From Dictyostelium discoideum (taxonomy: Eukaryota), in assembly GCA_000004695.1 (NCBI GenBank), contig CM000150.2, forward strand, positions 128,001 to 192,000: a DNA stretch of 64,000 bases. The letters are read 5' to 3'. The position numbers were made by a program, and so were the translations under genes. Every line of letters begins with the position of its first letter. Position 1 is the stretch's first letter. This document shows, piece by piece, positions 4,940-49,445 of the stretch. The notes beneath the pieces are model-generated. The model did no database searches. It had not been told where the DNA came from and saw only the letters and a list, made by a program, of their open reading frames with translations.

Positions 4940-7495
4940 TTAAGTGTATGTGTACTTAGGGATGACTTTGATAGTAGATAAGTGCTTGAATACTTGATTT
5001 GCATCCCATATCTCTTTATACTTTGCTGATGAAGGGCGCAACTTGTGAATACCAGTCATAATTCTTGTAATGAATGGATCATTAACAATATCAGTTTGAT
5101 TCCTAAGGAGTAACAACTGATTCAACATAGAGCGATGACCGTTAATTGTTGAGAAGGCTAACGGAGGTTTGTGCTTGAACAGATGTGTAAGATAATCCAT
5201 GAAAACAACTAAGGTAATGTTTGCTGGATTCAAAGAGTTCAAAGTACAGAAATTGCGGAATCTTGTATAACTGGAGCTATATACTTTGAGAGTTGAAGGT
5301 TCCCAAGACTTCATTAACAGCTCAGCTGTTTTTGTATTTGTTGTACGAGCGAATGACATTACATGAGATTGGAAAGTTGAATAATCCCCAGCTTCCAACG
5401 TTGTTGAATCTGGATTGGTATCGACTCTACTGATTGTTTGGTCAATACTTCTTGGAATGTTCCCAGTATTTGAGGAAACATGTGACGATGATGACGAGGA
5501 ACTTGAGCTTGAATCATCGGATACCAAGTTGCTGATCTCCAGATTGGGAAGATCAGTATTATAGAAACCTTCTTCGAACTGGATGAATTCATCTTCTCCA
5601 GGATAGAAGGCAAAAGAATGGGTGGTGGGAAGGCTAGACATTGCTTCCATTGACTCCAATCGAGGTGGAGTGCATTCATTCTGATTGTTGAGTAGTTGTT
5701 CGTTTGATGGTTGAGATGAGATGCGAACAGATCCATCTGTATTTGACCGAATTGGAGTTGGATGCGATTGAACACTTCCTTCTTCAGTTGCCAGTTGTAA
5801 CTCTTGATTACTCTGGTCGATGATTTGTGATTCATCTCTGAAAGACGACTGAGGTAGTCGGCTTTTACATTGAAGAATCCTGGAATATGCTCTCCAATCA
5901 AGTTCACTTTCTTCTTGAGGCATTGTTTCCATAGTTGTTCGAATAGAACTGAGAGATCCTGTATCTGACCACCCTGGCGATTGATGTAAGAGAGAGTGGT
6001 AGTGTTGTCGGTTTGAATCTTCAGCTTGCAGTTGTTCAGTTTCCGACATAGCGCTTGATAGGCCATTAGCAGCGCGAGCATTTCTCGACGATTTGACGAC
6101 ATGTTTGATTGAGTTGTTGACCACTGGAATGACCAAGTTTTGATTACCTTGTTTCCTTTCTTGAGTGTGGCACCTGCACCTGATTCCGAGGCATCGGTTG
6201 TAAGAACATAGTCGTAACTTGGAAACAGACTGATTTCTTTTCCATTCCATTGGTTTAGAACTGTTAACCAATGTGAAATCTCTGACTTGACCTCTTGAGG
6301 AATGGGGAATGATTGATCCCAATCTCCATTGGCTAGAGTCAGACACTGAGAGTGAAACTTGTTTGTTCGACGAGTGTAAAGTCTGAATGGGATGACTGCA
6401 TCTTTCAGTGCGATTAACTTTCCTTTTAAACCAGCAAGCTTTCTTGGGGAGCAACAATCTAGTTTTAAAAAGTTTCTTATTTCTTTGATGACACTTTTCT
6501 TCTTTTCTTTGGGAACAAGAAGCTTCATTGATACCGAATCGATTTGTAATCCGAGAAAAGTAATTGATTGAGTTGGTTCGAGAACACTCTTTTCTAGATT
6601 TAACTTGAAGCCTAGTTTGACAAGTAAGTCCATAGTCTTTTTGAGGTTGGATAAACATTCTTCTTTTGTTGAACCGACGATTAATAGATCGTCCAAGTAA
6701 GCGATGACGGATACGTTGATATCTCTCAACATTCGAAGTACAGGTCTTAGCAGCATTGTAAAGATACGAGGAGCTGTCGATAACCCGAATGGCATTGTTT
6801 TCCAACGGTAGTGCGAACCTTTCCACACGAAGCGGAATAAGTCTCTGTATTGTGGGTCTACTAACACGTGGAGGTAGGCTTTCTTGATATCGAGTTTTAC
6901 CATGTAATAACCTTGTTTGACCATTGACGGTAGATTCTTGATTCCTTCCATCTTGAATGATTGGTTGTTGATGAAGGTGTTTAACCTTTTTAAATCTAGA
7001 ACTGGACGATGTAGATTCGTTCCAGGTTTTGGAACCGTAAACACGTTGGAGTAAAAAACGCGCTTTGAATAACGGTTTGGAAGTACTTGTTCGATAGCAT
7101 CGTCTAATAACAAGTCTTGTACTTCCTTTGTGATGCAATCTGATTTGGGACCCTCTGGAATTGAAATCGGAATTGGGTTTAGCATCGGCTTGAAATTTGG
7201 AAGCAGATGGACTTTTAATCCATTTACGACCTCTTGACAAAAGTTTGGAAGACCCAATTCTTTCCAAACTTGTTTGTGGTTGAACAGACGTCCACCTACT
7301 GGTAAGTTTACTTCTTGTTCTTCTGAAAACGGTTGTTGGTACCGTTGGCAGACTTGGTATTGTTGCTACCTGATGCAACATTACTTGGTGATCCATTGAA
7401 GTTGTTAGATCGGCCATTACTCCCACTACTGGATTTACTATTGCTACTGTTTCCTGTAGTGTTATTACCACTTGAGTTAACTGATTTCTTGACAT
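4940..7495 (-). pseudogene. DIRS-1 ORF2, interrupted (C-terminal ~190 aa of the recombinase separated to 1-117 and beyond window)
   Basis: 851-aa ORF ends at ...VIPKYTYT, exactly the nested-insertion breakpoint. Confidence 0.7.
5359..7257 (-). CDS. DIRS-1 RT/RNase H ORF (copy 2)
   Basis: 632 aa, ~99% identical to 1628..3526 product. Confidence 0.8.
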   Translation of the reverse strand: MGLPNFCQEVVNGLKVHLLPNFKPMLNPIPISIPEGPKSDCITKEVQDLLLDDAIEQVLPNRYSKRVFYSNVFTVPKPGTNLHRPVLDLKRLNTFINNQSFKMEGIKNLPSMVKQGYYMVKLDIKKAYLHVLVDPQYRDLFRFVWKGSHYRWKTMPFGLSTAPRIFTMLLRPVLRMLRDINVSVIAYLDDLLIVGSTKEECLSNLKKTMDLLVKLGFKLNLEKSVLEPTQSITFLGLQIDSVSMKLLVPKEKKKSVIKEIRNFLKLDCCSPRKLAGLKGKLIALKDAVIPFRLYTRRTNKFHSQCLTLANGDWDQSFPIPQEVKSEISHWLTVLNQWNGKEISLFPSYDYVLTTDASESGAGATLKKGNKVIKTWSFQWSTTQSNMSSNRREMLALLMAYQALCRKLNNCKLKIQTDNTTTLSYINRQGGQIQDLSVLFEQLWKQCLKKKVNLIGEHIPGFFNVKADYLSRLSEMNHKSSTRVIKSYNWQLKKEVFNRIQLQFGQIQMDLFASHLNHQTNNYSTIRMNALHLDWSQWKQCLAFPPPILLPSILEKMNSSSSKKVSIILIFPIWRSATWYPMIQAQVPRHHRHMFPQILGTFQEVLTKQSVESIPIQIQQRWKLGIIQLSNLM

Positions 7496-8312
7496 TGGAC
7501 TTGGAATGATAATTCAATTTTAACAATGATTGTTTAGCTTCGTTGTTCTTTCTGATTGACTTGGCTAGCTTTCTTACACGTTCAGTTTCAGTTTCATCAA
7601 ACATCTTTGGTGTATCCTTGATCTTAATTGGTAAGAGTACTTCAGAACCATAGATTTCTTTAGCGATGTTGTTACGACGGACACGACTAAGCGATGCTTG
7701 AGCATTAACGGCTAAGACGATTGCACTCTGAGTTAAATAACTAATAAGTTCTACATCGACATTAGAGCTATCAGATGATAACATACTTGACATGAGAAGC
7801 AAAGGTTTTAAGCTATCGTTGATTCGCTTTTCGACAATCAACAAGTCAGTATCATTGTTCTTGACGTTGGATGATACAGTAATACCTTCAGGTGTACCGA
7901 ATGGAGCGACATTCACTTGGAAGTTAGATGGAAAGTTGAATACTTTATTCAATTCGGATATCTCATCTTTCTTGAGGATACATTCTTCGACAAGTAAACC
8001 TTGATTGTTTACCATATGTTTGTACTGACCAAGTAAAGTATCGGATAATTGATAATCGGTTGGAACATCGACATTGTTACTTGATTCATCTTCACTTTGT
8101 TCATTCTCGGTGTCAGAGTTATCATGAGAAGGTTGGCTACGTGAATTGGTATTAGATGAGAACATAGGTTCTTTCATGAATCTAGTAAAGGCTAAGGAAA
8201 GGTTGTTGATTTGATCCTCCATTGATTTCATTCTTAAATCAAAGGATTCAGCGCTATTAGAGGCAGAGGTATTGCTACTAGAGGCTTCATTATTATTATC
8301 AGTGGTAGACAT
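7308..8312 (-). CDS. DIRS-1 ORF1 (copy 2)
   Basis: 334 aa, near-identical to 570..1577 product. Confidence 0.8.
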   Translation of the reverse strand: MSTTDNNNEASSSNTSASNSAESFDLRMKSMEDQINNLSLAFTRFMKEPMFSSNTNSRSQPSHDNSDTENEQSEDESSNNVDVPTDYQLSDTLLGQYKHMVNNQGLLVEECILKKDEISELNKVFNFPSNFQVNVAPFGTPEGITVSSNVKNNDTDLLIVEKRINDSLKPLLLMSSMLSSDSSNVDVELISYLTQSAIVLAVNAQASLSRVRRNNIAKEIYGSEVLLPIKIKDTPKMFDETETERVRKLAKSIRKNNEAKQSLLKLNYHSKSNVKKSVNSSGNNTTGNSSNSKSSSGSNGRSNNFNGSPSNVASGSNNTKSANGTNNRFQKNKK

Positions 8313-8429
8313 ATTTTATTGTTGATATCTAAAATTATAATATGAGAAAAATAATAATATTAAAAATTTATAAAGAGAAATAATTATTTGTATAAAATTT
8401 GTGTGTGTGTGTATCTTAAATATATATAG

Positions 8430-8752
8430 GAGGAATTCCCAAATAAAAATTGTTTTTAGTTTTTAGTGCTACTATTTATACGTTTTTATTTTCTTAAAAA
8501 TTTCGCAAAACTCAAAAAAATAAGAGTTTTCGACCCTTCACAACTTTGTGCATAGTGTCGGTTCGGAATTTTTCAGTTTTTCGACCTTGCGCAATGATCG
8601 CGTCATTGTGCCGGTTCGAAATTTTTACTTTTCTTTCGAAAATTTTTTATTCTTCGAATGTTCTAGAACATTCTAAAAAATTATCTTAAATATTTGGGAA
8701 ATTCAAATAAATAAATGTTATTCATAATATATATATATATATGATAATATAA
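8430..8752. repeat. DIRS-1 left ITR (inverted orientation) with HSE-like site at ~8653-8676
   Basis: cgaatgttctagaacattctaaaa; terminus ...gataatataaaa at 8752. Confidence 0.75.
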
Positions 8753-8773
8753 AAGACTGATCAATACCCATCA

Positions 8774-9034
8774 CTAATTTACCATTAGGGCAGGGGATCT
8801 CACGGATACTAGATTGCGCAAAACTTCCCGTATTCTCATCAATAAGAAGATATGTGGTGATTGTATCCACAGTGGGGGCTGGGATGGTCCCAATGCCGTG
8901 TTCCAGGCCTGATAAAACTTATCAGAATTAGAACCGCCATCTTGCACAACTATCGCTGGTGTTAATGTAGCAGCCGCAACAAACAACCCTTGATCAAATT
9001 TTAATCTATTTCCTGCCTTCGCACTAATACGCAC
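8774..9034 (-). CDS. Hypothetical ORF, possibly the frameshifted continuation of the upstream tail-fibre-like gene
   Basis: Same strand, 100 bp downstream, GC-normal codon usage. Confidence 0.2.
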   Translation of the reverse strand: MRISAKAGNRLKFDQGLFVAAATLTPAIVVQDGGSNSDKFYQAWNTALGPSQPPLWIQSPHIFLLMRIREVLRNLVSVRSPALMVN

Positions 9035-9135
9035 ATCTCAACTATCGGAAGCAGGACCCGCCATCATATTTAAAATGATAGGTGTGCCGCCATCTTCCAT
9101 GTACGCTATGAGTGTTGCGTTCTGAATTGTAGGAC

Positions 9136-9519
9136 CTAGTGCACCATTACCGTAAGCTTGAATGAACTGGCCCTTAGGGGTAGGAATACCGTTATCGCGC
9201 CTGGAGCTGATAATATTTCGTTGTCCGTAACATCCTGTTTCGTGTAAGCCGTGTGAGTAGCCACTGATACTTTGGGTGCTGTAAAGACGTCTTTCACAAT
9301 GTCATTAATCTCTGCAGCGGTCACAACACCGCCCTGGATAACTTCCTCTATGTCTGGTAATCCTCCGTTACCACCACCACCGCCCGCTAATGCGATTATA
9401 TCGCCTAACGTTGCTTTCCTTAAGGCTAATCGTCCATCTTCATTTAGTTGGGAAATCGCAACAATCTCCTGACCCGTTATAGTTTGAGCTGCTGGTAATG
9501 TAGAAAATTTAACAGCCAT
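9136..9519 (-). CDS. Hypothetical protein with phage tail-fibre N-terminal-like sequence (MAVKFSTLPAAQTITGQEIVAISQ...GGGGGNGGLPD); likely a truncated gene
   Basis: GGAG Shine-Dalgarno 7 nt upstream of the internal ATG (ttatGGAGcgttattATG); resemblance to P2-gpH/lambda-Stf-type N-termini is from memory, not searched. Confidence 0.35.
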   Translation of the reverse strand: MAVKFSTLPAAQTITGQEIVAISQLNEDGRLALRKATLGDIIALAGGGGGNGGLPDIEEVIQGGVVTAAEINDIVKDVFTAPKVSVATHTAYTKQDVTDNEILSAPGAITVFLPLRASSFKLTVMVH

Positions 9520-10281
9520 AATAACGCTCCATAATTCAACCGATTTAAATGCTAAAATATCAATATATTGCAATGGTCAAAGCATGGGGTTTTATAGGAG
9601 CCCTACTAGACTCTCTCGTTTAAACTTTATACACTACTTATTATTATTGATTTAAAAATGAGTGCAGGACTCATTAAGGCTTGCACAGGGAATTGAACCC
9701 CAATCCACGTTATCGTTGGTGGCTCTAGGCCGCTGTGAGCTACATACATTCTGTCAGAAAGGTAACCTACGTCCCTCCAACTTTAACGCACTCTATTGTT
9801 GAGCTATACAAGCATAACATAAATGACCCAGCCTCGCAGTATTTATTACATTCGCAGCGGCGATGCACGCCTAACCACACAGTTTATGAACCCACTAGAT
9901 TATCAGATCCCGACTGGAAGTTTTGTCACGAACTCTATTGTAGGGTAATTAATCCTACGGTCAAGCCGTCTACCAATTAGTTAAGTACCTAGTAAATGTT
10001 CAACGATTAAGACATCATCCTCTGGACTCAGTCCGTATCTGTTCTTTGCGTGTCTGGCTATTACTGGCTTATTTGTTTGCAGTGGGTCTTTGCTATCATC
10101 GCTGAGACTTGGATGATAAAAATACCAACCAAGTCTTGTTCACCGCTCCACGTATAAGGGGAAAATATTGTCTCCTCAAGACAGCCCGAAGGTAGTCGGT
10201 GGCTAACCACAGCCCAACTCACCTTTTGCTCAGGATTTACCCTAAAAGGCTATTAACTTTATAACCTCATCTTTGAGTGCG

Positions 10282-10849
10282 ATTAGCTTTCCTTTTAAAC
10301 CAGCAAGCTTTCTTGGGGAGCAACAATCTAGTTTTAAAAGTTTCTTATTTCCTTGATGACACTTTTCTTCTTTTCTTTGGGAACAAGAAGCTTCATTGAT
10401 TTTGAATCGATTTGTAATCCGAGAAATGTAATTGATTGAGTTGGTTCAAGAACAATCTTTTCTAGATTCAGCTTGAAACCTAGTTTGACAAGTAAGTCCA
10501 TTGTCTTTTTGAGGTTGGATAAACATTCTTCTTTTGTTGAACCGACGATTAATAGATCGTCCAAGTAAGCGATTACGGACACGTTGATATCTCTCAACAT
10601 TCGAAGTACATGTCTTAACAACATTGTAAAGATACGAGGAGCTGTCGATAACCCGAACGGCATTGTTTTCCAACGGTAGTGCGAACCTTTCCACACGAAG
10701 CGGAATAAGTCTCTGTATTGCGGATCTACTAAAACGTGGAGGTAGGCTTTCTTGATATCGAGTTTTACCATGTAATAACCTTGTTTGACCATTGACGGTA
10801 GATTCTTGATTCCTTCCATCTTGAATGATTGGTTGTTGATGTAAGTGTT
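10282..10849 (-). pseudogene. DIRS-1 RT-region fragment (element coords ~1912-2480), target of another nested DIRS insertion
   Basis: 161-aa ORF 10334..10819 is identical to the RT core; abuts a plus-oriented left ITR at 10850. Confidence 0.8.
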
Positions 10850-11762
10850 TATTTATATTATCATATATATATATATTATGAATAACATTTATTTATTTGA
10901 ATTTCCCAAATATTTAAGATAATTTTTTAGAATGTTCTAGAACATTTGAAGAATAAAAAATTTTCAAAAGAAAAGTAAAAATTTCGAACAGGCACAATGA
11001 CGAGATAATTGCGCAAGGTCGAAAAACATAAAAATACCGAACCGACACAATGCACAAATTTGTGAAGGGTCGAAAACACTTATTTTTTTGAGTTTTGCGA
11101 AATTTTTAAGAAAATAAAAACGTATAAATAGTAGCACTAAAAACTAAAACAATTTGATTTATTTTATTTGGGAATTCCTCCTATATATATTTAAGATATA
11201 CACACACACAAATTTTATACAAATAATTATTTCTCTTTATTAATTTTTAATATTATTATTTTTCTCATATTATAATTTTAGATATCAAAAATAAAATATG
11301 TCTACAACTGTTAATAATAATTATACCTCTAGTAGTAGTACCTCTGCCTCTAATAGCGCTGAATCCTTTGATTTAAGAATGAAATCAATGGAGGATCAAA
11401 TCAACAACCTTTCTTTAGACTTTACAAGATTCATGAAAGAACCTATGTTCTCATCTAATACCAATTCACGTAGCCAACCTTCTCATGATGATTCTGACAC
11501 TGAGAATGAACAAAGTGAAGATGAATCAAGTAACAATGTCGATGTTCCAACCGATTATAAATTATCCGATACCTTACTTGGTCAGTACAAACATATGGTA
11601 AACAATCAAGGTTTACTCGTCGAAGAAGAATGTATCCTCAAGAAAGATGAGATATCCGAATTGAATAAAGTATTCAACTTTCCATCCAACTTCCAAGTCA
11701 ACGTCGCTCCATTCGGTACACCTGAAGGTATTACTGTATCATCCAACGTCAAGAACAATGAT
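10850..11762 (+). mobile_element. DIRS-1 5' fragment: left ITR plus first 155 codons of ORF1, then truncated
   Basis: ITR 10850-11180, HSE at ~10930, ORF1 11298..11765 ends in stop where homology is lost. Confidence 0.8.
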
Positions 11763-11765
11763 TAA
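11298..11765 (+). pseudogene. DIRS-1 ORF1, 3'-truncated
   Basis: 155 aa identical in register to ORF1 N-terminus. Confidence 0.75.
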
Positions 11766-12419
11766 TGTAAAAAAATAAAAAAAAATAATAAAAAAAATGA
11801 AACCATAAAACATAAATAAAATGATATGTTTTATTTTTTAATTTAATTTTGTATAAATATTTGTGAATACAATGAGAAATAATATACCGGGTTACACTGA
11901 ATTATATAAATAATAACATAATCTTTCTGAAAAACTTATTAATTTTTTTTTTTTTTTTTTTTTATTTTTTTATTTTTTTTTTTTTTAGTAATTGTTGACT
12001 AAAACCTATAAATATTTTCATTTATGTAACTACTGTATTCTAAACTTAACTATAATTATATATTTGATATGTGTTTATTAATAATTTACCATTATAAATT
12101 GTAAAATAATTTTTAATTTTTTTTTTTTTTACCTTTTTTTTTATCTTTAATTTTTTTTTATCTTTTTTTTTTAACCTTTTTTTTTTATCTTTTTTTAACC
12201 TTTTTTTTATCTTTTTTTTTTTTTTTCTAAAATATTATTGCTACATTTGTTGTTAAAAAAAAATAGGAATTTTATTTTTTTTTTATATTTTTTTTCATCA
12301 CACATTCACAAACATGCTTTATTTTTTAAAAAAAAAATATTTAAATTAAAAAAACATGCTTTATTTTTTTTTACAAAAATAAATTTTTTTTTTTTTATTT
12401 TTTTTTTTAAACCTATAAA

Positions 12420-13121
12420 CACAGCAAAGAAAAATGCACCTTTAAAGCAAATTTAAAGTAAAGTTGATTTAAATTGGATTTAAATTGAATTTAAAGCCGC
12501 GTTTAAAAAATTCATTTTTAAGGTAATTTTTAAGGTAATTTTTAAGATATTTAAAAATGCCTTTAAAATTTGCTTAAAAATTTATTTTAAAGGTAATTTT
12601 AAAGGTGATTTTTAAGGTAATTTTTAAAATGATTTTTAAGATATTTAAAAATACCTTTAAAATTTATTTTAAATTAATTTTAAATAGGATTTAAAGTAGA
12701 TTTAAAGTAGATTTAAAGTGAATTTAAATTTCCTTAATATATAAATTTAAGGTTTTTAATAAAAAAGATCTAATTATAGATAAAAAAAATGGGGATAAAA
12801 TATTCTATCATTTTTAAATTTTCATCAAAGCAATCAAATGGTCGGGGGATCGAATCCCTTTTGGTAATTTTTGAAAAAATTAAAAAAAAAAAATTTAAAA
12901 AATTTATCCGTTAAATAACGGCTTCGAACTCAGGACCTCGCTTTTAAAGCGATTAAAAAGGTAATTTTAAAGGTAATTTTAAAGGTAATTTTAAAGGTGA
13001 TTTTAAAGTAACCTTAAAAATTACCTTTCAAATTACCTTTAAAATTGCTTTAATTCAGGACTTTAAAGCAAATTTAAATTTAATTTAAAGCGAATTTAAA
13101 GGTGGTTTTTTCTTTGCTGTG
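12420..13121. mobile_element. MITE-like non-coding TIR element (termini cacagcRaagaaaaa...ttttcttYgctgtg), DDT/thug-like Dictyostelium DNA-transposon derivative; family assignment uncertain
   Basis: ~28-bp imperfect terminal inverted repeats, subterminal ggtaattttaaagg repeats, internal T-arm-like motifs. Confidence 0.6.
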
Positions 13122-13473
13122 AAATATTTTGCTTTTTTTTTTTTTTTTTTTTTTTTATTATTTTTTTTTACCAACACATAACGACTCTTCCTTACTTATA
13201 ATATATAAGCAAATAACATTAAAAAAATTGTTAAATTATTTACATAACTTTTACGTAAAAACGAACGGATTTTTATTTTTATTTTTATTTTTTTTCAATT
13301 TTTTTTTTTTTTGTTTCGGTTATTATTTTTCAGACTTAAATTATTATTTATAAATTAAATATAAAAAATAATATTGCATCATCTGGAAATGGTAATTATT
13401 TAAATTGATATTATCCAACTTCGCTTATTTTAAATAAAAATGAAACTGCACTAAATCAAAACTGGTAAGGTAA

Positions 13474-14027
13474 GATGATTTTTAAGGTAATTTTTAAGAT
13501 AATTTTTAAGATATTTAAAAAATACCTTTAAAATTTATTTTAAATTAATTTTAAATAGGATTTAAAGTAGATTTAAAGTATATTTAAAGTGAATTTAAAT
13601 TTCCTTTAAGTATAAATTTAAGGTTTTTAATTAAAAAGATCCATTTTTAGATCAAAAAAATGGGGATAAAATATTCTACCATATTTAAATTTTCATCAAA
13701 GCAATCAAATGGTGTAATGGTTGATGAGACTATCCTTTGATAGAGGGTCGGGGGATCGAATCCCTTTTGGTAATTTTTGAGAAATTAAAAAAAAAAATTT
13801 TAAAAAATTTATCCGTTAAATAACGGCTTCGAACCCAGGACCTCGCTTTTAAAGCGATTAAAAAGGTAATTTTAAAGGTAATTTTAAAGGTAATTTTTAA
13901 GGTGATTTTAAAGTAACCTTAAAAATTACCTTTAAAATTACCTTAAAAATTGCTTTAATTCAGGACTTTAAATTCGCTTTAAATTAAATTTAAATTTGCT
14001 TTAAAGGTGGTTTTTTCTTCGCTGTGT
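13474..14027. mobile_element. MITE-like TIR element, 5'-truncated copy
   Basis: Matches internal and right-terminal parts of 12420-13121; ends ...ggtggttttttcttcgctgtg. Confidence 0.55.
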
Positions 14028-14735
14028 TAATGCCGATTTTTTTCATTTTTTGTTTTGTTTCTAATTTTATTTTGAGGATTTGAAAAATCTTGTTTATTTG
14101 GTTTTGAATTGTGAAAGTCAATAATATCTTTTTGATTTCTAAAATTTCCTTCTTTTAATAAATAATCGACACCTCTTGGTTTATCACATGTATGACATGA
14201 GAAATCATTGCAATTATAATGGTTAATCCTACAAGATGATCTAAATTCTGTTATATGCATTGTTAATCCATATGGTATAATTTCATAATCATTTTCATTA
14301 TTATCTTTAATTTTTAATTTATTATTAAATTGCGCTGAAAATAATTTTTTAATTGTTTGATGTATATTGTGAAACCATTCTTTTGGAACAATAAAAAAAA
14401 CAATTTTATTATTTTTAAAAAATGGACCAACATAATTTTCAAAATCTACCAATAATGTATAATCTGATCTACCTTGATGACTCATTCCTTCACTAAATAT
14501 TCTTAATAAAATAAATTTATATAAAATTGAATTTTTTATTTTATTAAACTGTTCTCCAGATTTATAATTTTTATAAATACCTTGCTCATAGTCTTTTGAG
14601 AAATCTAAATATTCTAAAAAATTTTTTTTTTCAATTAATAATTTAACAACTGAATAAATTTCAAAATAAAAAATTGACTCTTCATTTGTAACTCAAAAAG
14701 TGACCATCGATAGGTAAATTTGCTAAAAATATAGA
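14027..14735 (-). pseudogene. Fragment of a divergent paralogue of the 30505..33024 transposase (covers ~aa 255-485), truncated where the MITE terminus at 14027 begins
   Basis: ...SIFYFEI...LLRIFSEGM...GLTMHITEFRSSCRINHYNCNDFSCHTCDKPRG aligns to the full-length protein; stop codon directly abuts cacagcg. Confidence 0.55.
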
Positions 14736-14743
14736 ATCCATAC

Positions 14744-14783
14744 ACAGCGAAGAAAAAACCACCTTAAAAGCAAATTTAATCTA
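14744..14783. repeat. Solo TIR of the MITE-like family
   Basis: cacagcgaagaaaaaaccaccttaaaagcaaattt, no matching partner nearby. Confidence 0.5.
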
Positions 14784-15410
14784 AAAAAAAAACAAAAAAA
14801 GTATTATTTTAGATTTCTTCAACTTCATCAATAATATCAATGCTTTCAAAACCAATCACCAGTTCTTTTAAAATAAATTGATACTACAATTAAATAATAG
14901 CTGGTAAGTTAATATAATTTTTTTTTAAAAAAAAAAAAAATTAAAAAAAAAAAAAAAATAAATAATAATAATAAAATAAAATAGATAGACTAATTTGAAA
15001 AATAATAATTATATTTTAGGTTACCTTTCTTATTATACCAACAACCACTTCTTTTCAATCAAATTGATACTTCACTTATATAATAACTGGTAAGTCAATA
15101 TAATTTTTTTTTTTTAAAAAAAAAATAATAATATAAAATAAAGAGATTAATATAATTTAAACAATTATATTTTAGGTTGTTTCTTCTTTTATTAGAACCT
15201 GTAAAGTAAATGCTTTTGGTACAAATTATAATGGAAATAAAGTTCTGCTTTTCAAATTAGTCAATTATAAATGTTGTATTACCATTAAATAAAAAAAATT
15301 TCTGATTTCAAATACTTTTACTTTTTAATTAATTCTTTTTTTTTTTTTTTTTTTTTTAAATTTATTTTAAATTATTATTATAAAATGTTATTTTTAATTT
15401 TTATTTTTAA

Positions 15411-15715
15411 GTATTCTTATTAAGTGAACTTTATAATTACCCTTAATAATTACCCTTATTAATTATAATTAATAATTCCACTTAATAGTTATACTTAATA
15501 ATTATACTTAATAATTTTAATTATTAATTATATTTTATTATTATACTTAATAATTATGCTTAATAAATATACTTTTTAATTATACTTAATAAATATACTT
15601 AATAAATATACTTTTTAATTATACTTATTAATTATACTTAATAAATATACTTAATAATTATACTTAATAATTATACTTAATAAATATACTTATTAAGTAT
15701 ACTTAATAATAGTAC
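15411..15715. repeat. AT-rich tandem satellite (unit ~ATACTTAATAAATATAC / TTATACTTAATAA)
   Basis: ~18 imperfect tandem units visible by eye. Confidence 0.6.
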
Positions 15716-15719
15716 TATT

Positions 15720-16989
15720 TACGTTCCTACTTTAAAGATGCTTTTAAGTATTTTTTTTCGCCCCTGTGGAGATTAACACCCTCATTTAGGGGATGTCTTG
15801 ACCAGAACACAGGTTATCCCCTTATTTTTTCTTTTAATTCAATGGAGGAATGTCATGCCATGTAAACCTTTTGATTTTGGTAACAGGACAAAACGCACTG
15901 CAGCGGTCGATAAAGCCAAGCGAGTTGCTAATCCAATTCGTCGTACTCAGTTACTGAAGAAGATTCGTTAATGACTGATCGGAAAGTCAGCATCGCTAGA
16001 ATGGTAGATTGTCGTTGAGATGCAGGGCGTAAAGCCCAGCTATTGGCAAAGATGTAAGCGGCTTAAGAGCCCCTAATTAGTATCCGCGGTCACGGCCGCA
16101 CATCCTAGCCTATGGGCTCACACCAATGCGTAATATGGTAGCAAAAATCATGTCAGATGAAGACATCCCAGATCATGATACCCGTACATGGTATTGTCTC
16201 CAGTATCCAATAACCTCAATCTGCCATCAAACCAAATTATAATATTTAAAAAAAAAAATTTGAATCTCAAAAATCATTTTCTAGATCTGAAAAAACCCAC
16301 TTAAATTATTATTAAATTACTATTTTTTTTAATAATTTAGTAAATAGATATTTTAAGTCATAAATTAAGCGATAAAATCTATTTTTTTGGTTAACCAGCA
16401 TAGTCTAGGTGTTTATCTATTTAATATGTTTTTTGTGGATAATAAAGCATATTTCAATCACTAATGATATTTATTAAATTTATTAAATTTGTTTATTTTT
16501 TTTTTCCGTGATGGAAAATGGTAAGACCATTAGTTCGTTCTGCATTGCCCATTACATCACCACTTCTTACATGTCAGCGTCTGGTGAAGTTACGCTGGGT
16601 GATGCAGCCGATAAAGAGACACAGTTCGCTATTAACTCGACTGGATCGATTAATATGTAAGCGCCACGTTTTGTTCTGAAGGGTATTCGGGATGAGAGAA
16701 CACCTGTTTTTGAATGCTCATGAATTATCCAGCATAGTATGTGGAATTCTATAGACCCTATTACCAGAAATACGACCACGGAAGATCTTGGTTCGCAACG
16801 CGTTTGCTGAAGTGGTTCACACACAACTATCCAACAGCGGTGATTGATGTGGTTAAGTCCGTGGCCCTGGTTCTTGTTAAACATCGCGATTTGATTGGTA
16901 ACCCATCATTCATTGACACAGAGTGGTTTTTGGATGGTGAGTGTTTGCGTCATCTTAATAACGCACTGGTCATGGAAAACGAACCGGTT
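15720..16989. other. GC-normal island B, prokaryote-like
   Basis: Ends exactly at DIRS left-ITR terminus 16990; contains SD-preceded small ORF. Confidence 0.55.
15856..15972 (+). CDS. Small basic ORF (MPCKPFDFGNRTKRTAAVDKAKRVANPIRRTQLLKKIR)
   Basis: GGAGG 6 nt upstream of ATG (caatGGAGGaatgtcATG). Confidence 0.3.
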
Positions 16990-17025
16990 TATTTATATTA
17001 TCATATATATATATATATATTATGA
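16741..17025 (+). CDS. Hypothetical ORF in island B, runs into the DIRS ITR, probably truncated
   Basis: GC-normal codon usage; no recognisable motif. Confidence 0.2.
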   Translation: MEFYRPYYQKYDHGRSWFATRLLKWFTHNYPTAVIDVVKSVALVLVKHRDLIGNPSFIDTEWFLDGECLRHLNNALVMENEPVYLYYHIYIYIL

Positions 17026-17079
17026 ATAACATTTATTTATTTGAATTTCCCAAATATTTAAGATAATTTTTTAGAATGT

Positions 17080-17101
17080 TCTAGAACATTCGAAGAATAA
17101 A
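17080..17101. promoter_or_regulatory. Perfect 4-unit heat-shock element in DIRS ITR (GAAtgTTCtaGAAcaTTCgaag)
   Basis: Alternating GAA/TTC at 5-bp spacing. Confidence 0.55.
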
Positions 17102-17443
17102 AAAAATTTTCCAAAGAAAAGTAAAAATTTCGACCCGGCACAATGATGCGATAATTGTGCAAGGTCGAAAAACTGAAAAATTCGGAACCGACACTATGTA
17201 CAAAGTTGTGAAGGGTCGAAAACTCTTATTTTTTTGAGTTTTGCGAAATTTTTAAGAAAATAAAAACGTATAAATAGTGGCACTAAAAACTAAAACAATT
17301 TGATTTATTTTATTTGGGAATTCCTCCTATATATATTTAAGATACACACACACACAAATTTTATACAAATATTTATTTCTCTTTATTAATTTTTTATATT
17401 ATTATTTTTCTCATATTATAATTTTAGATATCAACAATAAAAT

Positions 17444-20322: not shown

Positions 20323-21313
20323 TATATATATATATATGATAATATAAATTAAAAATTTAATTTATTAAATTATATTTTATATTAAATATATATATATATA
20401 TTAGTCCCATCCCACCCGCCCTTAGTCGGAATTCCATAAATCAAATTGTTTTAGTTTTTATTGCCACTATTTATACGTTTTTATTTTCTTAAAAATTTCG
20501 CAAAACTCAAAAAAATAAGTGTTTTCGACCCTTCACAACTTTGTGCATAGTTTCGGTTCAGAATTTTTCAGTTTTTCGACCTTGTGCAATGATCGCGTCA
20601 TTGTGCCGGTTCGAAATTTTTACTTTTCTTTCGAAAATTTTTTTTATTCTTCGAATGTTCTAGAACATTCTAAAAAATTATCTTAAATATTTGGGAAATT
20701 CAAATAAATAAATGTTATTCATAATATATATATATATATTTAATATAAAATATAATTTAATAAATTAAATTTGTAATTAAACAGAACCCTGAGACGTATG
20801 TGGTCTACCAGAAGGTATCAAATGTAGCAAATCGCGTGCTTTAGAACAATCGCATGTATTCGGTGTGTTATGTATTCCAACGTACCATACCCGTAATCAT
20901 TCGTTTGGTTTCAAATATGTGTTGGTATCGAAGAACCTACAGCGTCTTCAACCAGGTGAGCACCTTGCGGCGGGGGACAATTTTTGCACACTCCCCTAAT
21001 TTGACAGAGGGCGGTGACTAAATACGGGTGTGAAACTAACGTGTGTTTCATGTCACTACCAGAAGTCGAACAGGATGGAATGATTGCTACGGAATCATTC
21101 GTTAATGCCATGGCGTGTGATAAGATGGAGAGTCGTTTATTGCAATGGGGTGAGAACAATGTACTTGTTAAACAACTACAAACCTTATCCAGTGATCGGG
21201 GAACAAATTCGGGATGATGGTTTTTTATTCGCAATGCGCAATATCGAATCTGATGTTGGTCTGGTCAACATGACTGCGAAAGCATTGATGGAAGTGGATG
21301 TCATCTTGGATAA

Positions 21314-21835
21314 ATGCGTGTACGGCGACCTAGTGCAACGGTAATCAACATTACCATCAAGTCCAACCGCCTGCGTACAGGTCGTTCAGAAGTTCAGTTC
21401 TATGATAAACAATCCGACCCCTATGAAAAAGCAGACCGTGACTTTCCTATCAATCTGCGTGGTGTGTATGAAACATTATTGAGTCGTCACCCACATACCT
21501 TAATGTTAGAGCCTAGTCTGAACACTTTGGTCAATAATGCCATATCTGATACCGGTGGTTTGGATCGTCGAATGAATGCCCAAACTGGTGCAATCTTGGC
21601 GATGGATAAAGGTGTTCAGATCTATAACAAGTTCCTATCGGCTACTGGCGTGCTTAGATCTCTTTTGTTAAATGCATTGTGGCAGGTGTGCGTTTCAAGA
21701 TCTCTGACAGTCATGAGGGTAAAGGTGTTATCGTTCATGTCTTTAAAGATGAAGATGCACCGACATGGCGTGCGTACAGATGTCATCGTGGATAACGCCT
21801 CTATCACTAAAACTCTATTGAACAGTTTGAGTTGA
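21314..21835 (+). CDS. Hypothetical protein (173 aa)
   Basis: GC-normal ORF, stop overlaps next start. Confidence 0.3.
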   Translation: MRVRRPSATVINITIKSNRLRTGRSEVQFYDKQSDPYEKADRDFPINLRGVYETLLSRHPHTLMLEPSLNTLVNNAISDTGGLDRRMNAQTGAILAMDKGVQIYNKFLSATGVLRSLLLNALWQVCVSRSLTVMRVKVLSFMSLKMKMHRHGVRTDVIVDNASITKTLLNSLS

Positions 21836-22452
21836 TGTCCAACAGTCCTATCTATCAGTCCAAAGCAAACCGTGATCATCATGTGAGCTGGGTGATTGAA
21901 CATGAAGTAGAGCTGCTAGCGTTAACTGATCGCTTGTATTATGGGGCAGAGCAGATTCTTCGCATTAAGAAGAACCATGACTTCCCAACATATCCTGCTC
22001 GTTATCGAGCACCTTATGGGAGGTTTGTGATAACTCGTGATCCAGTAATGATTGTACCAGTGTATATCATCCTGTTGGAAAAGATGAGGGAATATTTGGT
22101 TTCCTATGCAGTGCCTAAGTTAATGCACTTCGGTACTTTATCTATTATTACTCAAGTAGACAAGTACGCCCTCCCTTGGCGTAATGTACCAACTCGTTTG
22201 GCTGGTGAGTCAGACATTCGTCTGTTCTGGCGGCTGGTACACAAACCGTCTATTATCATTGCCAATACACCGGCAATGCAGAAAGCAGTAGGTAAGTTAT
22301 TGCGTCATGAGAATCCAATGCGTATTGACAATTTGATGGATGAAAGTGTATCTCCACTAGGTCGTAATCGACCAGTGCAGATGTATAAACACATGCAAGC
22401 TTGTCGTGGTATTCGCTTTGAACGTCAATTGTTAACTGAAGGGGCCGCTTAA
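21832..22452 (+). CDS. Hypothetical protein (206 aa)
   Basis: ATGA/TGATG translational-coupling junction with upstream ORF. Confidence 0.3.
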   Translation: MMSNSPIYQSKANRDHHVSWVIEHEVELLALTDRLYYGAEQILRIKKNHDFPTYPARYRAPYGRFVITRDPVMIVPVYIILLEKMREYLVSYAVPKLMHFGTLSIITQVDKYALPWRNVPTRLAGESDIRLFWRLVHKPSIIIANTPAMQKAVGKLLRHENPMRIDNLMDESVSPLGRNRPVQMYKHMQACRGIRFERQLLTEGAA

Positions 22453-22468
22453 AGCAGATCGGCAAGAT

Positions 22469-23059
22469 TTGCTAATGAATGGAGAGCAGATCTGGTCGTT
22501 AGATCCTCAGTGTAATAATCCTAAAGTTCAGGTTCTCGCTGAGGATAAAACTTTTGAGATGTTGGTGCGTCCTCTGATAGCCAGCTGGCCAATTCAGAAG
22601 TTCCAAGAAGGGATGGCTCTGGGTAAGCGGCATTTCTTAACAGGGTTCCGCATTTCAAACAAAGGTATCCGTAACATACTGACCGAAGGGTATCGTGACT
22701 ACGATATGATCATTGTACAACTAATGGGCACTGATCTGACCGGTGGGTTCATCGATGTAGTGAAATTTAACTCATTACAAGCCCGTACCATTAACCATAT
22801 CAACAACGCCTTTGTTGCAAGAATTCCTGAATATGTCACTACTGCAAGTATGGTTGACTATTTAGAGATTCTATTATTCGTCAAGTTCGAGCAGGTCTGG
22901 TTTAGTTCCAGAAATCTATCGGCTAGGCTTATAAGAAAGGACTGGGCCATATCAAAAACCCTGATAAATTTCCAAAGAATCAAATCGCTGAGGATATCAA
23001 ACAAGGCGGTGTTTCCGATGGCCAGACTGCTCAGGTGTTTATCTCATGTGGTTACCTAA
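22469..23059 (+). CDS. Hypothetical protein (196 aa)
   Basis: 16 bp after previous stop, same strand. Confidence 0.3.
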   Translation: MLMNGEQIWSLDPQCNNPKVQVLAEDKTFEMLVRPLIASWPIQKFQEGMALGKRHFLTGFRISNKGIRNILTEGYRDYDMIIVQLMGTDLTGGFIDVVKFNSLQARTINHINNAFVARIPEYVTTASMVDYLEILLFVKFEQVWFSSRNLSARLIRKDWAISKTLINFQRIKSLRISNKAVFPMARLLRCLSHVVT

Positions 23060-23718
23060 CCGACCATAACTCCAGGATCTTTGTTCGTCCTGTTACGGTC
23101 AAGGTATTGGTAGCTTCTATGAAGCCTTTGTTGAATCACATTCTGCTACTGAGGCCATGATCTTTACCAAGAAACCATTGGAGGATTCAGAATGGTTTAA
23201 CCGTAAGTTACAATTGGTCGGTTAGGCCATACAGCGCGTCCATCTTGGTGAGGATTGAGGTACTCAAATTACAGTACCGGTAATAATGCGTCCAGGCTGG
23301 TCCGGTGTAATGGCGGGTAAGTATTACGTAGACGACAGTGGTCAGATGTAAGCCATTCATGAGAAAGATGAAGGTAAACTGCTGCGTATAAGGTCACTAA
23401 TGTATTGTCAGCATAAATATCGTTCGGGTGTTTATGAGCGCTGTTATGGTAAGTTGGCTATGTCGATCCCGTATTTCAACGTACTGGGCAAGATAGGGAA
23501 AAACGAAGCCATTGCTGGGCACGTGTCCGCAACAGAATTTGATGCTGCTTTATAACAGAAGATGTTGTCCACTAAACACCTGGATACTTCTTCTACGGTG
23601 GATCCGTTTATCATTCATCGTGAAGATGCAATTTATATAACGTGTGGTATTCGTGATAATACTGCTGGTTTAAACCTACGACTGAAAGGGCAGAATGTAG
23701 CCAGATGACGTAGGGATT

Positions 23719-24099
23719 GTGCTTGATCAGTTCTTAGAGTTACTTAACCGACTTCTACAGGTGAATATCGTTCATGCTGAAATGATTCTGTACTCGGTAA
23801 TGGTGCGTGACCCAAGCAAGTTGGATCATTGCTTACCGCGCGCTAACGAACAACGGCAGTTTAGTTCTTATCACGAATGTATCGAATTCCCCAGTCTTTT
23901 GGTGCAGTTGCTGTATCAAGAGCAAGCGGATGTTATGATGAAACCCATGACGTTCTTAATTGATAACCGTCAGTCACATCGGCAGATAGATTATATTACC
24001 CATCTGTTCAAGCACAAACCTCCGTTAGCCTTCTCAACAATTAACGGTCATCGATCAATGTTGAATCAGTTGTTACTCCTTAGTATCTTTGCAGACTAA
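23719..24099 (+). CDS. Hypothetical ORF whose C-terminus is encoded by an embedded DIRS-1 ORF2 fragment
   Basis: ...ITHLFKHKPPLAFSTINGHRSMLNQLLLL is DIRS ORF2 sequence. Confidence 0.25.
   Translation: MLDQFLELLNRLLQVNIVHAEMILYSVMVRDPSKLDHCLPRANEQRQFSSYHECIEFPSLLVQLLYQEQADVMMKPMTFLIDNRQSHRQIDYITHLFKHKPPLAFSTINGHRSMLNQLLLLSIFAD
23994..24083 (+). mobile_element. 90-bp DIRS-1 ORF2 fragment embedded inside island C
   Basis: ~97% identical to 19534-19620 (copy-3 variant); flanks on both sides are GC-normal non-DIRS sequence. Confidence 0.8.
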
Positions 24100-24110
24100 G
24101 GGGTAGGGCG

Positions 24111-24506
24111 ATGCGCACTACGGCAACGCTTATCATTGGTAATCATGGATTTACGGTTAAAGACTACAATGATGAGTTCTACAGTAAGGCAAGGGCGTAC
24201 TGCGCACGTTTCGTTAAATACCGGATTGAATCTAAGGTCGTCCAAGGACGGAGATCTTTTGTCAAGGTACCAGATCGTGTATTCGGCTCAGCTTCGAAGG
24301 ACCGTAAAGAGCTACACATTAACTGTTTAGCTGAATTTAAACAATTTATGTTGAATAGTGGTTGGAACCCTGAACGGTTCAAAGAAATCACCAGGGAATT
24401 ACCTGAGGGACGAGATGTCAATTCCAATGACCACCAGGTTGCAGTACCAGTTAGAGAAAGATCCTTCTGGTATCACGACCCGAATCAATACATTGCAAAC
24501 GGGTAA
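24111..24506 (+). CDS. Hypothetical protein (131 aa)
   Basis: taAGGGGtagggcgATG SD-like context. Confidence 0.3.
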   Translation: MRTTATLIIGNHGFTVKDYNDEFYSKARAYCARFVKYRIESKVVQGRRSFVKVPDRVFGSASKDRKELHINCLAEFKQFMLNSGWNPERFKEITRELPEGRDVNSNDHQVAVPVRERSFWYHDPNQYIANG

Positions 24507-24615
24507 AGGAAAGACATTCTATGCCATATACAACATGTTCAAACTGCAGAAGCTCACTGGCATTATGTTAATGCCGAAGTACATCACGACTTGGCATACT
24601 GGCTTACATGACTTT

Positions 24616-46593: not shown

Positions 46594-47916
46594 TGGCATT
46601 ACTATTGCTACTGTTTCCTGTAGTGTTATTACCACTTGAGTTAACTGATTTCTTGACATTGGACTTGGAATGATAATTCAATTTTAACAATGATTGTTTA
46701 GCTTCGTTGTTCTTTCTGATTGACTTGGCTAGCTTTCTTACACGTTCAGTTTCAGTTTCATCAAACATCTTTGGTGTATCCTTGATCTTAATTGGTAAGA
46801 GTACTTCAGAACCATAGATTTCTTTAGCGATGTTGTTACGACGGACACGACTAAGCGATGCTTGAGCATTAACGGCTAAGACGATTGCACTCTGAGTTAA
46901 ATAACTAATAAGTTCTACATCGACATTAGAGCTATCAGATGATAACATACTTGACATGAGAAGCAAAGGTTTTAAGCTATCGTTGATTCGCTTTTCGACA
47001 ATCAACAAGTCAGTATCATTGTTCTTGACGTTGGATGATACAGAAATACCTTCAGGTGTACCGAATGGAGCGACATTCACTTGGATGTGAGATGGAAAGT
47101 TGAATACTTTATTCAATGCGGATATCTTATCTTTCTTGAGTACATTCTTCGACAAGTGAAAACCTATTGTTTACCATATGTTTGTACTGACCAAGTAAAG
47201 TATCGGATAATTGATAATCGGTTGGAACATCGACATTGTTACTTGATTCATCTTCACTTTGTTCATTCTCGGTGTCAGAGTTATCATGAGAAGGTTGGCT
47301 ACGTGAATTGGTATTATATGAGAACATAGGTTCTTTCATGAATCTAGTAAAGGCTAAGGAAAGGTTGTTGATTTGATCCTCCATTGATTTCATTCTTAAA
47401 TCAAAGGATTCAGCGCTATTAAAGGCAGAGGTATTGCTACTAAAGGCTTCATATTATTATTATCAGTGGTAGACATATTTTATTGTTGATATCTAAAATT
47501 ATAATATGAGAAAAATAATAATATTAAAAATTTATAAAGAGAAATAATTATTTGTATAAAATTTGTGTGTGTGTGTATCTTAAATATATATAGGAGGAAT
47601 TCCCAAATAAAAATTGTTTTTAGTTTTTAGTGCTACTATTTATACGTTTTTATTTTCTTAAAAATTTCGCAAAACTCAAAAAAATAAGAGTTTTCGACCC
47701 TTCACAACTTTGTGCATAGTGTCGGTTCGGAATTTTTCAGTTTTTCGACCTTGCGCAATGATCGCGTCATTGTGCCGGTTCGAAATTTTTACTTTTCTTT
47801 CGAAAATTTTTTATTCTTCGAATGTTCTAGAACATTCTAAAAAATTATCTTAAATATTTGGGAAATTCAAATAAATAAATGTTATTCATAATATATATAT
47901 ATATATGATAATATAA

Positions 47917-49445
47917 AAGACTGATCAATACCCATCACTAATTTACCATTAGGGCAGGGGATCTCACGGATACTAGATTGCGCAAAACTTCCCGTATTCT
48001 CATCAATAAGAAGATATGTGGTGATTGTATCCACAGTGGGGGCTGGGATGGTCCCAATGCCGTGTTCCAGGCCTGATAAAACTTATCAGAATTAGAACCG
48101 CCATCTTGCACAACTATCGCTGGTGTTAATGTAGCAGCCGCAACAAACAACCCTTGATCAAATTTTAATCTATTTCCTGCCTTCGCACTAATACGCACAT
48201 CTCAACTATCGGAAGCAGGACCCGCCATCATATTTAAAATGATAGGTGTGCCGCCATCTTCCATGTACGCTATGAGTGTTGCGTTCTGAATTGTAGGACC
48301 TAGTGCACCATTACCGTAAGCTTGAATGAACTGGCCCTTAGGGGTAGGAATACCGTTATCGCGCCTGGAGCTGATAATATTTCGTTGTCCGTAACATCCT
48401 GTTTCGTGTAAGCCGTGTGAGTAGCCACTGATACTTTGGGTGCTGTAAAGACGTCTTTCACAATGTCATTAATCTCTGCAGCGGTCACAACACCGCCCTG
48501 GATAACTTCCTCTATGTCTGGTAATCCTCCGTTACCACCACCACCGCCCGCTAATGCGATTATATCGCCTAACGTTGCTTTCCTTAAGGCTAATCGTCCA
48601 TCTTCATTTAGTTGGGAAATCGCAACAATCTCCTGACCCGTTATAGTTTGAGCTGCTGGTAATGTAGAAAATTTAACAGCCATAATAACGCTCCATAATT
48701 CAACCGATTTAAATGCTAAAATATCAATATATTGCAATGGTCAAAGCATGGGGTTTTATAGGAGCCCTACTAGACTCTCTCGTTTAAACTTTATACACTA
48801 CTTATTATTATTGATTTAAAAATGAGTGCAGGACTCATTAAGGCTTGCACAGGGAATTGAACCCCAATCCACGTTATCGTTGGTGGCTCTAGGCCGCTGT
48901 GAGCTACATACATTCTGTCAGAAAGGTAACCTACGTCCCTCCAACTTTAACGCACTCTATTGTTGAGCTATACAAGCATAACATAAATGACCCAGCCTCG
49001 CAGTATTTATTACATTCGCAGCGGCGATGCACGCCTAACCACACAGTTTATGAACCCACTAGATTATCAGATCCCGACTGGAAGTTTTGTCACGAACTCT
49101 ATTGTAGGGTAATTAATCCTACGGTCAAGCCGTCTACCAATTAGTTAAGTACCTAGTAAATGTTCAACGATTAAGACATCATCCTCTGGACTCAGTCCGT
49201 ATCTGTTCTTTGCGTGTCTGGCTATTACTGGCTTATTTGTTTGCAGTGGGTCTTTGCTATCATCGCTGAGACTTGGATGATAAAAATACCAACCAAGTCT
49301 TGTTCACCGCTCCACGTATAAGGGGAAAATATTGTCTCCTCAAGACAGCCCGAAGGTAGTCGGTGGCTAACCACAGCCCAACTCACCTTTTGCTCAGGAT
49401 TTACCCTAAAAGGCTATTAACTTTATAACCTCATCTTTGAGTGCG
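47917..49445. other. GC-normal island A' (duplicate of 8753-10281) including tail-fibre-like CDS 48300..48683 (-)
   Basis: Identical translation products. Confidence 0.6.

Follow-up and report, generated by a model that had tools for sequence, protein, structure and literature searches.

A probable fossil of jumbo-phage DNA in a DIRS-1-rich region of the Dictyostelium discoideum genome

A bacteriophage gene relic in amoeba DNA

The 64,000-nucleotide stretch of Dictyostelium discoideum DNA analysed here (contig CM000150.2 of assembly GCA_000004695.1, positions 128,001 to 192,000 of the forward strand; hereafter the window) carries on its minus strand, at 9136-9573, an open reading frame (ORF) that a preliminary description had taken for the N-terminus of a P2-H/lambda-Stf-type phage tail fibre, preserved as a frameshifted relic behind a strong Shine-Dalgarno signal. 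This interpretation is partly supported. The frame is homologous to a phage protein, it belongs to a pseudogene, it adjoins the terminus of a DIRS-1 element that truncates the gene, and a second fragment of phage DNA lies in the same window. The locus is very probably a dead bacteriophage-DNA fossil in the nuclear genome of the amoeba, set in a DIRS-1-rich centromeric region, probably that of chromosome 1. Integration in the chromosome is indirectly supported by precise DIRS-1 termini at three junctions and by heavy decay, and the relic appears to be functionless in the amoeba. Judging from its homologues, the donor would have been a lytic, phiKZ-like (nucleus-forming) jumbo phage of Enterobacterales-type prey.

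The minus-strand ATG is at 9519-9517 and the GGAG at 9530-9527, separated by a 7-nucleotide (nt) spacer (cgttatt). From this ATG the frame reads MAVKFSTLPAAQ...GGGGGNGGLPDIEEV... to a stop at 9138-9136 and encodes 127 amino acids (aa), while the mechanically called ORF 9136-9573 starts at a TTG upstream of the ATG and has 145 aa. The start, the spacing, the length and the next ORF on the same strand (8774-9034) are all present as described, and so is the second copy at 48300-48683, which is 100% identical across 8700-10320 but arose by segmental duplication and so does not count as a separate occurrence of the gene. The relic is laid out as follows.

9527..9530, minus strand: Shine-Dalgarno GGAG, 7 nt 5′ of the ATG; the upstream 19 nt align with the phage contig L003
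9173..9519, minus strand: relic part 1, in the first frame; ~45-aa N-terminal module, Gly-rich hinge and start of domain A (residues ~1-115)
9041..9172, minus strand: relic part 2, in the second frame (GQFIQAYGNGALGPT...AGPASDS), followed by an in-frame TGA
8766..9037, minus strand: relic part 3, in the second frame to ~8866, shifting frame at a C-run indel and continuing to ~8766; P0002 residues ~161-250

An exhaustive phmmer search of 1.84 billion representative proteins returns a single strong relative, P0002 (453 aa; expectation value (E) 3.5e-27, 56% identity over residues 1-115), which is located on the 118-kb Logan contig SRR13790903_41. Reading through the lesions gives a frameshift-corrected product of 256 aa, which has 51% identity over 251 aa to P0002 residues 1-248 (pairwise E 2e-70). 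The alignment to the intact P0002 crosses all three frames and the one TGA, so that both the phage derivation and the frameshifted state of the relic are borne out. In tblastn with P0002, residues 1-120 correspond to 9519-9160, and further high-scoring segment pairs (HSPs) cover 9184-8852 and 8876-8766. At the DNA level the relic is 65% identical to L003 over 572 nt (E 5.5e-30), a span that includes 19 nt upstream of the start. Because these 19 nt align (TATGGAGAGTTATCATGG in the phage, TATGGAGCGTTATTATGG in the amoeba), the Shine-Dalgarno sequence is authentic, inherited from the phage gene and no coincidence.

The lesions of the relic comprise two 1-nt indels and one in-frame TGA. The first, near 9176, is the loss of 1 nt from a C-run (TTCCCT to TTCCT), at the junction of VF and PTPKGQFIQ; the second is the TGA at 9040-9038, where P0002 has Ser; and the third is another C-run indel near 8866. 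Homology to P0002 ends at ~8766 (residue ~250), ~12 nt short of the DIRS-1 terminus at 8753, so that ~45% of the gene has been lost. Through the DIRS-1 truncation the amoeba copy lacks a C-terminal domain (with the ending ...VQY(D/E)P.Y..(T/S)YWY) that is present in P0002, in the Erwinia phage protein gp105, in the metagenomic protein P0009 and in a protein of Serratia phage PCH45.

The retained part has a modular structure. The relic has the N-terminal module (M-x-V/T-K-x-S-x-L...G.E/D(I/L)V...K.T..D(I/L)..L.G) and, next to it, the Gly-rich hinge, and an alignment of five sequences shows M1, K4, S6, L8, A11, G29, D40 and G46 of this module to be invariant. The domain A motifs ITV(F/Y)PT-x-G-x-(F/Y)-x(3)-G-x(2)-ALG ... 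AYMxDGG are found as well and straddle the first frameshift; relic part 3 possibly includes a second copy of this domain. Besides P0002, phmmer finds two relatives of the N-terminus, P0004 (E 3.6e-7) and P0006 (E 7.7e-4), both of them short proteins that have only the N-terminal ~45 residues in common with the relic and whose remainders match tail-fibre and minor-tail PHROGs.

Relatives of the relic in jumbo phages

The P0002 contig has densely packed genes on one strand, among them those for a phiKZ-type prohead protease (Peptidase_S80), GyrA, ThyA, Tpt1, RlaP, an AAA protein and a Peptidase_S74 protein, and several of its genes match PHROG phage families. The best relatives of the AAA gene adjoining P0002 are in 280-307-kb jumbo phages of Ralstonia and Klebsiella. 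The GenBank relatives of P0002 or of the relic are from jumbo phages only (Erwinia, Serratia) and are weaker than P0002, and all significant relatives come from jumbo-phage genomes or contigs or are without recorded context. P0002 itself shares with the relic the N-terminal module, the Gly hinge, domain A and the ribosome-binding-site region, and differs from it in being intact and in having a further ~200-aa C-terminal part, whereas the relic has frameshifts, a stop codon and a DIRS-1 truncation.

The nearest named relatives are gp104 and gp105 of the Erwinia phages pEa_SNUABM_37/48. The first has the N-terminal module and domain A in common with the relic (29% identity, pairwise E 4e-12, with an alignment that runs across the relic frameshift), and the second shares its C-terminal domain with P0002, as does the PCH45 protein. 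Unlike in the relic, the protein is divided between two genes and has collagen-like Gly-X-Y repeats; its relationship to the relic is distant, and its annotation is 'hypothetical protein'. The two genes open a series of virion-structural paralogues, with collagen-like and tail-fibre PHROG genes as neighbours. P0009 (418 aa), from a related metagenomic contig, is a natural fusion of gp104 and gp105 with the same architecture as P0002, and P0002 resembles it in this fused architecture but is without collagen-like repeats. The 1292-aa PhiEaH1 tail fiber protein AGX01802 (phrog_3904), whose gene adjoins tail sheath and virion-structural genes, shares domain A (ITxYPT..G+y..FG.nALG...AYMPDGGSP) with the relic; here the domain is internal (residues ~98-231) to a far longer fibre without the N-terminal module, and 'tail fiber' is an annotation only. 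Its match to the relic alone is weak (31% identity over 67 aa, pairwise E 5e-7, database E 3) and becomes significant only through P0002 residues 20-156 (38% over 138 aa, pairwise E 6e-18, database E 3e-10).

The likeness to tail fibres therefore holds in part: there are relatives with tail-fibre modules or in virion-structural clusters, and they are not of the P2-H/lambda-Stf type. Because of the tail-fibre annotation, the shared modules and the virion-structural gene context, the label 'fibre-like virion protein' is reasonable, and the protein may have had a fibre role in the phage. The modular family to which it belongs seems to be confined to jumbo phages.

Searches for further relatives were negative or added little. 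The corrected product matches no Pfam family at E<=1 and nothing among the PHROGs, blastn of the insert against GenBank phages gives no match, and tblastn gives borderline matches only. In a word-indexed search of 5.8 billion proteins the only match of the corrected product is DDB_G0267332 of D. discoideum AX4, the amoeba's own gene model on a 4.92-Mb contig, and the same search with a five-sequence profile adds only pEa_SNUABM_37-like proteins. A sequence search of the PDB finds nothing significant, with phage baseplate proteins at E 0.14 and 0.56 among the matches. Pattern scans for relatives of the relic find none in IMG/VR, JGI metagenomes or GTDB genomes.

A second jumbo-phage fragment

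Masking the repeats in the window leaves three unique GC-rich segments: A (8755-10260), which holds the relic; B (20779-23985 and 24084-24611); and C (15722-16986).

20779..24615, plus strand: fragment B, the second jumbo-phage fragment; pseudogenes, arranged as in the phage, of non-virion RNA polymerase (nvRNAP) beta (aa ~94-700) and beta′ (aa 7-423, 555-647) and of an SF2 helicase (aa 1-182)
15722..16986, strand not assigned: segment C, GC 38%; duplicate at 54886-56150; ends at a DIRS-1 5′ terminus

Fragment B starts at a DIRS-1 3′ terminus, 11 kb from the flagged ORF. Across 60-70% of the fragment the DNA is ~67% identical to that of Erwinia Agricanvirus phages (which form a nucleus), Erwinia phage AH06, Salmonella phage SA002 and pEa_SNUABM_37, and the matching regions are the annotated genes for nvRNAP beta and beta′ and the SF2 helicase, in synteny. 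The encoded proteins are 40-68% identical to phage RNA polymerase and helicase proteins by PHROG and tblastn comparison. The fragment thus has the split nvRNAP beta and beta′ in conserved order with an adjacent SF2 helicase that mark a phiKZ-like phage; the phiKZ-like assignment of the relic in A itself rests on the fact that its homologues of known context are all from jumbo phages. Decay is advanced: the reading frame switches at least 7 times, in-frame stops number roughly a dozen and ~130 aa are deleted internally, and the density of lesions is alike in A and B at roughly 4-5 per kb. Between the beta′ and helicase relics lies a ~100-bp patch (23986-24083; ..THLFKHKPPLAFSTINGHRSMLNQLLLL) that is nearly identical to the DIRS-1 tyrosine-recombinase frame, where the phage genes are separated by 10 nt. 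Either gene conversion or an insertion templated during repair would account for its appearance.

Phage pEa_SNUABM_37 holds homologues of both A and B, at 80 kb and 224 kb of its genome (144 kb apart). When the neighbouring genes in the phage loci L001 (pEa_SNUABM_37 74764-87132), L003 and L004 and those within ±10 kb of the RNA polymerase genes in L008 are compared with the window, only the fibre gene and the RNA polymerase-helicase block match. Scans of IMG/VR based on the RNA polymerase give nothing from one query and five relatives, none closer than 69%, from another.

Segment C contains a prokaryote-style ORF of 38 codons (GGAGG-N6-ATG, ~15862-15978), coding-looking stretches that an AT-rich block at ~16250-16500 interrupts. 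It has no match among GenBank phages, PHROGs or Rfam, and may be more phage DNA.

Upstream part of insert A

The DNA 5′ of the relic in the same insert includes a tRNA-like element and a remainder without relatives.

9678..9813, minus strand: tRNA-like element with a 71-nt anticodon-loop region; 158 nt 5′ of the ATG and on the same strand; duplicate at 48842-48977 (minus)
9814..10267, minus strand: remainder of the GC-rich insert, 454 bp, GC 44%; unique in the window except for its duplicate

The tRNA-like element matches the full Rfam tRNA model at 31.6 bits (gathering score 29, E 1.4e-4) with lax filters only. ARAGORN calls no tRNA at default settings and returns noise at relaxed settings, the fold of the region is no better than that of shuffled sequences (z -1.1), and an exact search of IMG/VR for the 23-nt tRNA 3′ end gives 0 matches. 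The element is degenerate or carries an insertion, and a second D-arm-like motif within that insertion (GTAGCTCACAGCGGCCTAGAGC) suggests two fused or decayed tRNAs. The remainder (9814-10267) has no DNA, protein or PHROG match. A promoter and terminator scan gives results no better than shuffles.

Centromeric setting and DIRS-1 borders

The window is not bacterial, a point that the preliminary description missed, and consists of D. discoideum DNA rich in DIRS-1 and Ty3/gypsy elements, with a GC content that alternates between ~20% and ~40%. Its long ORFs belong to DIRS-1 (reverse transcriptase, RNase H, Dam-like methyltransferase and the tyrosine-recombinase frame) and to a Ty3/gypsy element, and the spacers have ~20% GC. 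This agrees with the published composition of the chromosome 1 centromere, which has 46.5% DIRS, 22% DDT, 11% Skipper and two tRNA genes (PMC2665215), and the locus is probably in this DIRS-1-rich centromeric region. For the centromeres, Glöckner and Heidel (2009) name only transposons, small non-transposon repeats, pieces of ribosomal DNA and tRNA (pseudo)genes (PMC2665215). The two tRNA genes of the chromosome 1 centromere, in a class mostly flagged as pseudogenes (PMC2665215), may be the tRNA-like elements at 9678-9813 and 48842-48977.

An 11.9-kb direct segmental duplication (7435-19305 and 46599-58469, 99.77% identity, 39.2 kb apart) contains the insert. The second copy of the insert and the elements at the borders of the first are as follows.

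47918..49431, minus strand: second copy of the insert, 100% identical; relic ORF at 48300-48683; inside the duplication 46599-58469
4940..8753, minus strand: copy of DIRS-1; its 5′ terminus (...GATAATATAAA) is complete, adjoins the relic and cuts it short at 8753/8754
10268..10816, minus strand: internal piece of a DIRS-1 reverse transcriptase, truncated; borders the insert on its other side

The terminal sequence of the truncating element is found at three ends of DIRS-1 copies, with flanks that all differ, and the 632-aa ORF at 5359-7257 of the truncating copy is the counterpart of the DIRS-1 ORF at 1628-3523, on which Pfam recognises RVT_1, RNase H and Dam domains. A precise, complete DIRS-1 terminus adjoins each of the fragments A, B and C, again with flanks that differ, an arrangement expected from transposition into resident DNA.

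Some further observations concern the mobile elements themselves. A Ty3/gypsy (Skipper-like) element interrupts the second copy of the duplication at 58469. In DIRS-1 (1628-3526, plus; 5359-7257, minus; and other copies), the reverse transcriptase/RNase H ORF ends in an N6-adenine methyltransferase domain of the Dam type (PF05869, E 1e-11). This domain is in its turn of a prokaryotic or phage kind, a theme that seems to be the subject of a 2026 preprint (10.64898/2026.05.21.726589). The long ORFs 30505-33024 (plus), 25529-26134 (minus) and 39225-40388 (minus), in AT-rich or Ty3/gypsy-adjacent DNA and without a Pfam match, are presumably DDT-type transposon and gag-like genes.

Origin of the locus

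The donor gene would have encoded a virion fibre-like protein of ~450 aa, of which the 5′ ~55% is retained together with the ribosome-binding site. The ancestral protein would have comprised the ~45-aa N-terminal module, the Gly-rich hinge, one or two beta-rich copies of domain A and the C-terminal domain now lost in the amoeba. In the proposed sequence of events, fragments of phage DNA would first have been joined into the centromeric repeat array, after which DIRS-1 would have inserted into the foreign DNA, one copy severing the gene at ~codon 250. Neutral decay would then have introduced the two 1-nt indels and the nonsense codon in the relic and many more lesions in the RNA polymerase fragment, and the 11.9-kb segmental duplication would finally have doubled the relic. 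These events are reconstructed from sequence, and their order only in part. The most economical route of entry would be through phagocytosed phage-infected bacteria, and a single donor probably supplied all of the fragments. The evidence leans towards a broader picture, in which the chromosome 1 centromere keeps the fossil of a fragmented genome of a lytic, nucleus-forming jumbo phage (the fibre gene, nvRNAP beta and beta′, the helicase and perhaps segment C and 9539-10267) that came from phage-infected prey and then became a landing pad for DIRS-1.

Several points weigh against the origin of the locus as a phage fossil. The evidence comes from one assembled sequence, which may formally be an assembly or cloning chimera. 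Both frameshifts of the relic are in C-runs, which are classic sites of sequencing error, and the 100% identical copies are perhaps not independent. GC is still 43-45% in the insert, compared with ~15-22% in neutral host DNA, which is hard to square with long residence. The region 9539-10267 is without a phage match in tblastn of a six-frame concatenate and in PHROG scans of 9535-10275. The P0002 contig and the relatives of fragment B may differ in lineage, as the AAA gene beside P0002 has no homologue in the Erwinia phages. For the fibre assignment, the tail-fibre function is based on annotations and shared modules in a family without a characterised member, the part kept in the amoeba lies outside the reach of Pfam and PHROG profiles, and an AlphaFold2 model of P0002 from an 8-row alignment is unusable (pLDDT 32.5).

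Some of these points would be explained if phage DNA contaminating a library had been stitched into the repeat-rich centromere assembly. Centromeric DIRS arrays are difficult to assemble (PMC2665215), the copies of the insert are 100% identical within a duplication that is otherwise 99.77% identical, and the homopolymer frameshifts and the GC far above the amoeba background fit as well; the exact ORFs are also not found in other public assemblies in an exact-match look-up of four window ORFs and the annotated 176-aa protein of the locus (P0001), which is a weak argument. A live contaminant would be intact, however, whereas the essential RNA polymerase genes bear the frame switches, stops and deletion described above, and a DIRS-derived patch lies between two of the phage genes. 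Moreover, each of the three foreign segments abuts a precise DIRS-1 terminus, as with transposition into resident DNA, and the fragments are far from adjacent in the phage genome. An assembly or cloning artefact is therefore unlikely.

Indirect arrival, for example by way of a giant virus or some other amoebal mobile element into which phage genes had been taken up earlier, or arrival of A and B from different donors at different times, would account for the lack of phage matches in 9539-10267 and segment C. It would also fit the fact that A has its best homologue on an RP12/FBKp24-like contig and B its closest relatives in Agricanvirus and pEa_SNUABM_37. The occurrence of homologues of both fragments in pEa_SNUABM_37, their similar lesion densities, the retention of bacterial-type Shine-Dalgarno sites and the lack of a eukaryotic-virus homologue in any search speak against such a history, which is given rather less credence still.

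That the locus is a functional amoeba gene, acquired by horizontal transfer and spliced as annotated, is highly improbable. A RefSeq/dictyBase spliced model of the relic locus does exist (DDB_G0267332; P0001, 176 aa; window 9038-9749, minus strand), and its predicted second intron (9270-9173) has GT...AG ends. This 'intron 2', however, is 98 nt long with ~50% GC, spans the frameshift and is homologous to P0002 codons 84-116; the introns of Dictyostelium are very AT-rich. Exon 1 (9749-9636) is an ORF laid over the tRNA-like element, and the TGA that breaks the homology to P0002 is where the model stops. Because exon 1 overlies the tRNA-like element and 'intron 2' is homologous to coding sequence, DDB_G0267332 is an annotation artefact, its predicted introns serving to bridge a frameshift. 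Neither an open frame nor host-like composition or introns is found at the locus, which has two frameshifts, one TGA, a truncation by DIRS-1 and 45% GC against a background of ~20%, and it is placed among centromeric repeats.

As for the type of fibre first proposed, the likeness to P2 gpH and lambda Stf consists of the first few residues and a general plan in which an N-terminal virion-attachment part is followed by a flexible region, and a sequence relationship to the relic is undetectable. Only the first 4-6 residues are alike (MAVKFS in the relic, MAVKIS in lambda orf-401, MSIKFR in P2 H). A P2-H/lambda-Stf-type fibre of a temperate phage or prophage, arriving for example with the DNA of a bacterial symbiont, has these residues and a weak internal match to P2 H in its favour (best HSP at residues 348-380, pairwise E 0.026), and is rejected as hardly credible given the lack of any Pfam family at the threshold above, a best BLASTP match to lambda orf-401 of E 60, no N-terminal alignment with P2 H, and significant relatives that are from jumbo phages or lack context, with none in 185,579 bacterial and archaeal species genomes scanned by pattern and tblastn.

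Implications

Taken together, the observations favour a phage fossil. Fossils derived from prokaryotes or viruses are familiar in eukaryotes and include the bacterial genes acquired horizontally by D. discoideum, endogenous viral elements, and inserts of Wolbachia and phage WO in arthropods. The present locus is like these in consisting of foreign DNA in a nuclear chromosome, decayed to pseudogenes amid repeats, and differs in its putative donor, a strictly lytic jumbo phage that is neither a virus of eukaryotes nor an endosymbiont. To our knowledge, transfer from a bacteriophage to a eukaryotic nucleus is rarely documented, and most known cases concern one domesticated enzyme or DNA that came with an endosymbiont. 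The present case stands out in that several kb of a strictly lytic jumbo phage, with structural and transcription genes, would persist in pseudogene form in a centromere of an amoeba that feeds on bacteria. The literature searched holds no report of jumbo-phage or phiKZ DNA or of horizontal gene transfer from phages in Dictyostelium, nor any on DDB_G0267332 or SRR13790903.

For genome annotation, the correction of DDB_G0267332 would, once the locus is confirmed in independent DNA, serve as a warning about 'orphan' eukaryotic proteins, and for phage biology the relic points to a small, previously unnamed family of fibre-like proteins that is found in jumbo phages only. If the origin proposed here is true, no endogenous jumbo-phage element would have been documented in a eukaryote before this one, and the locus would be direct evidence that the viruses of prey enter the germ line of the predator, extending 'you are what you eat' to phages. 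If confirmed in independent DNA, the locus would provide a datable marker for centromere evolution and for the dynamics of DIRS-1 insertion, and a concrete case of the feeding-driven gene-transfer ratchet with phages as its cargo.

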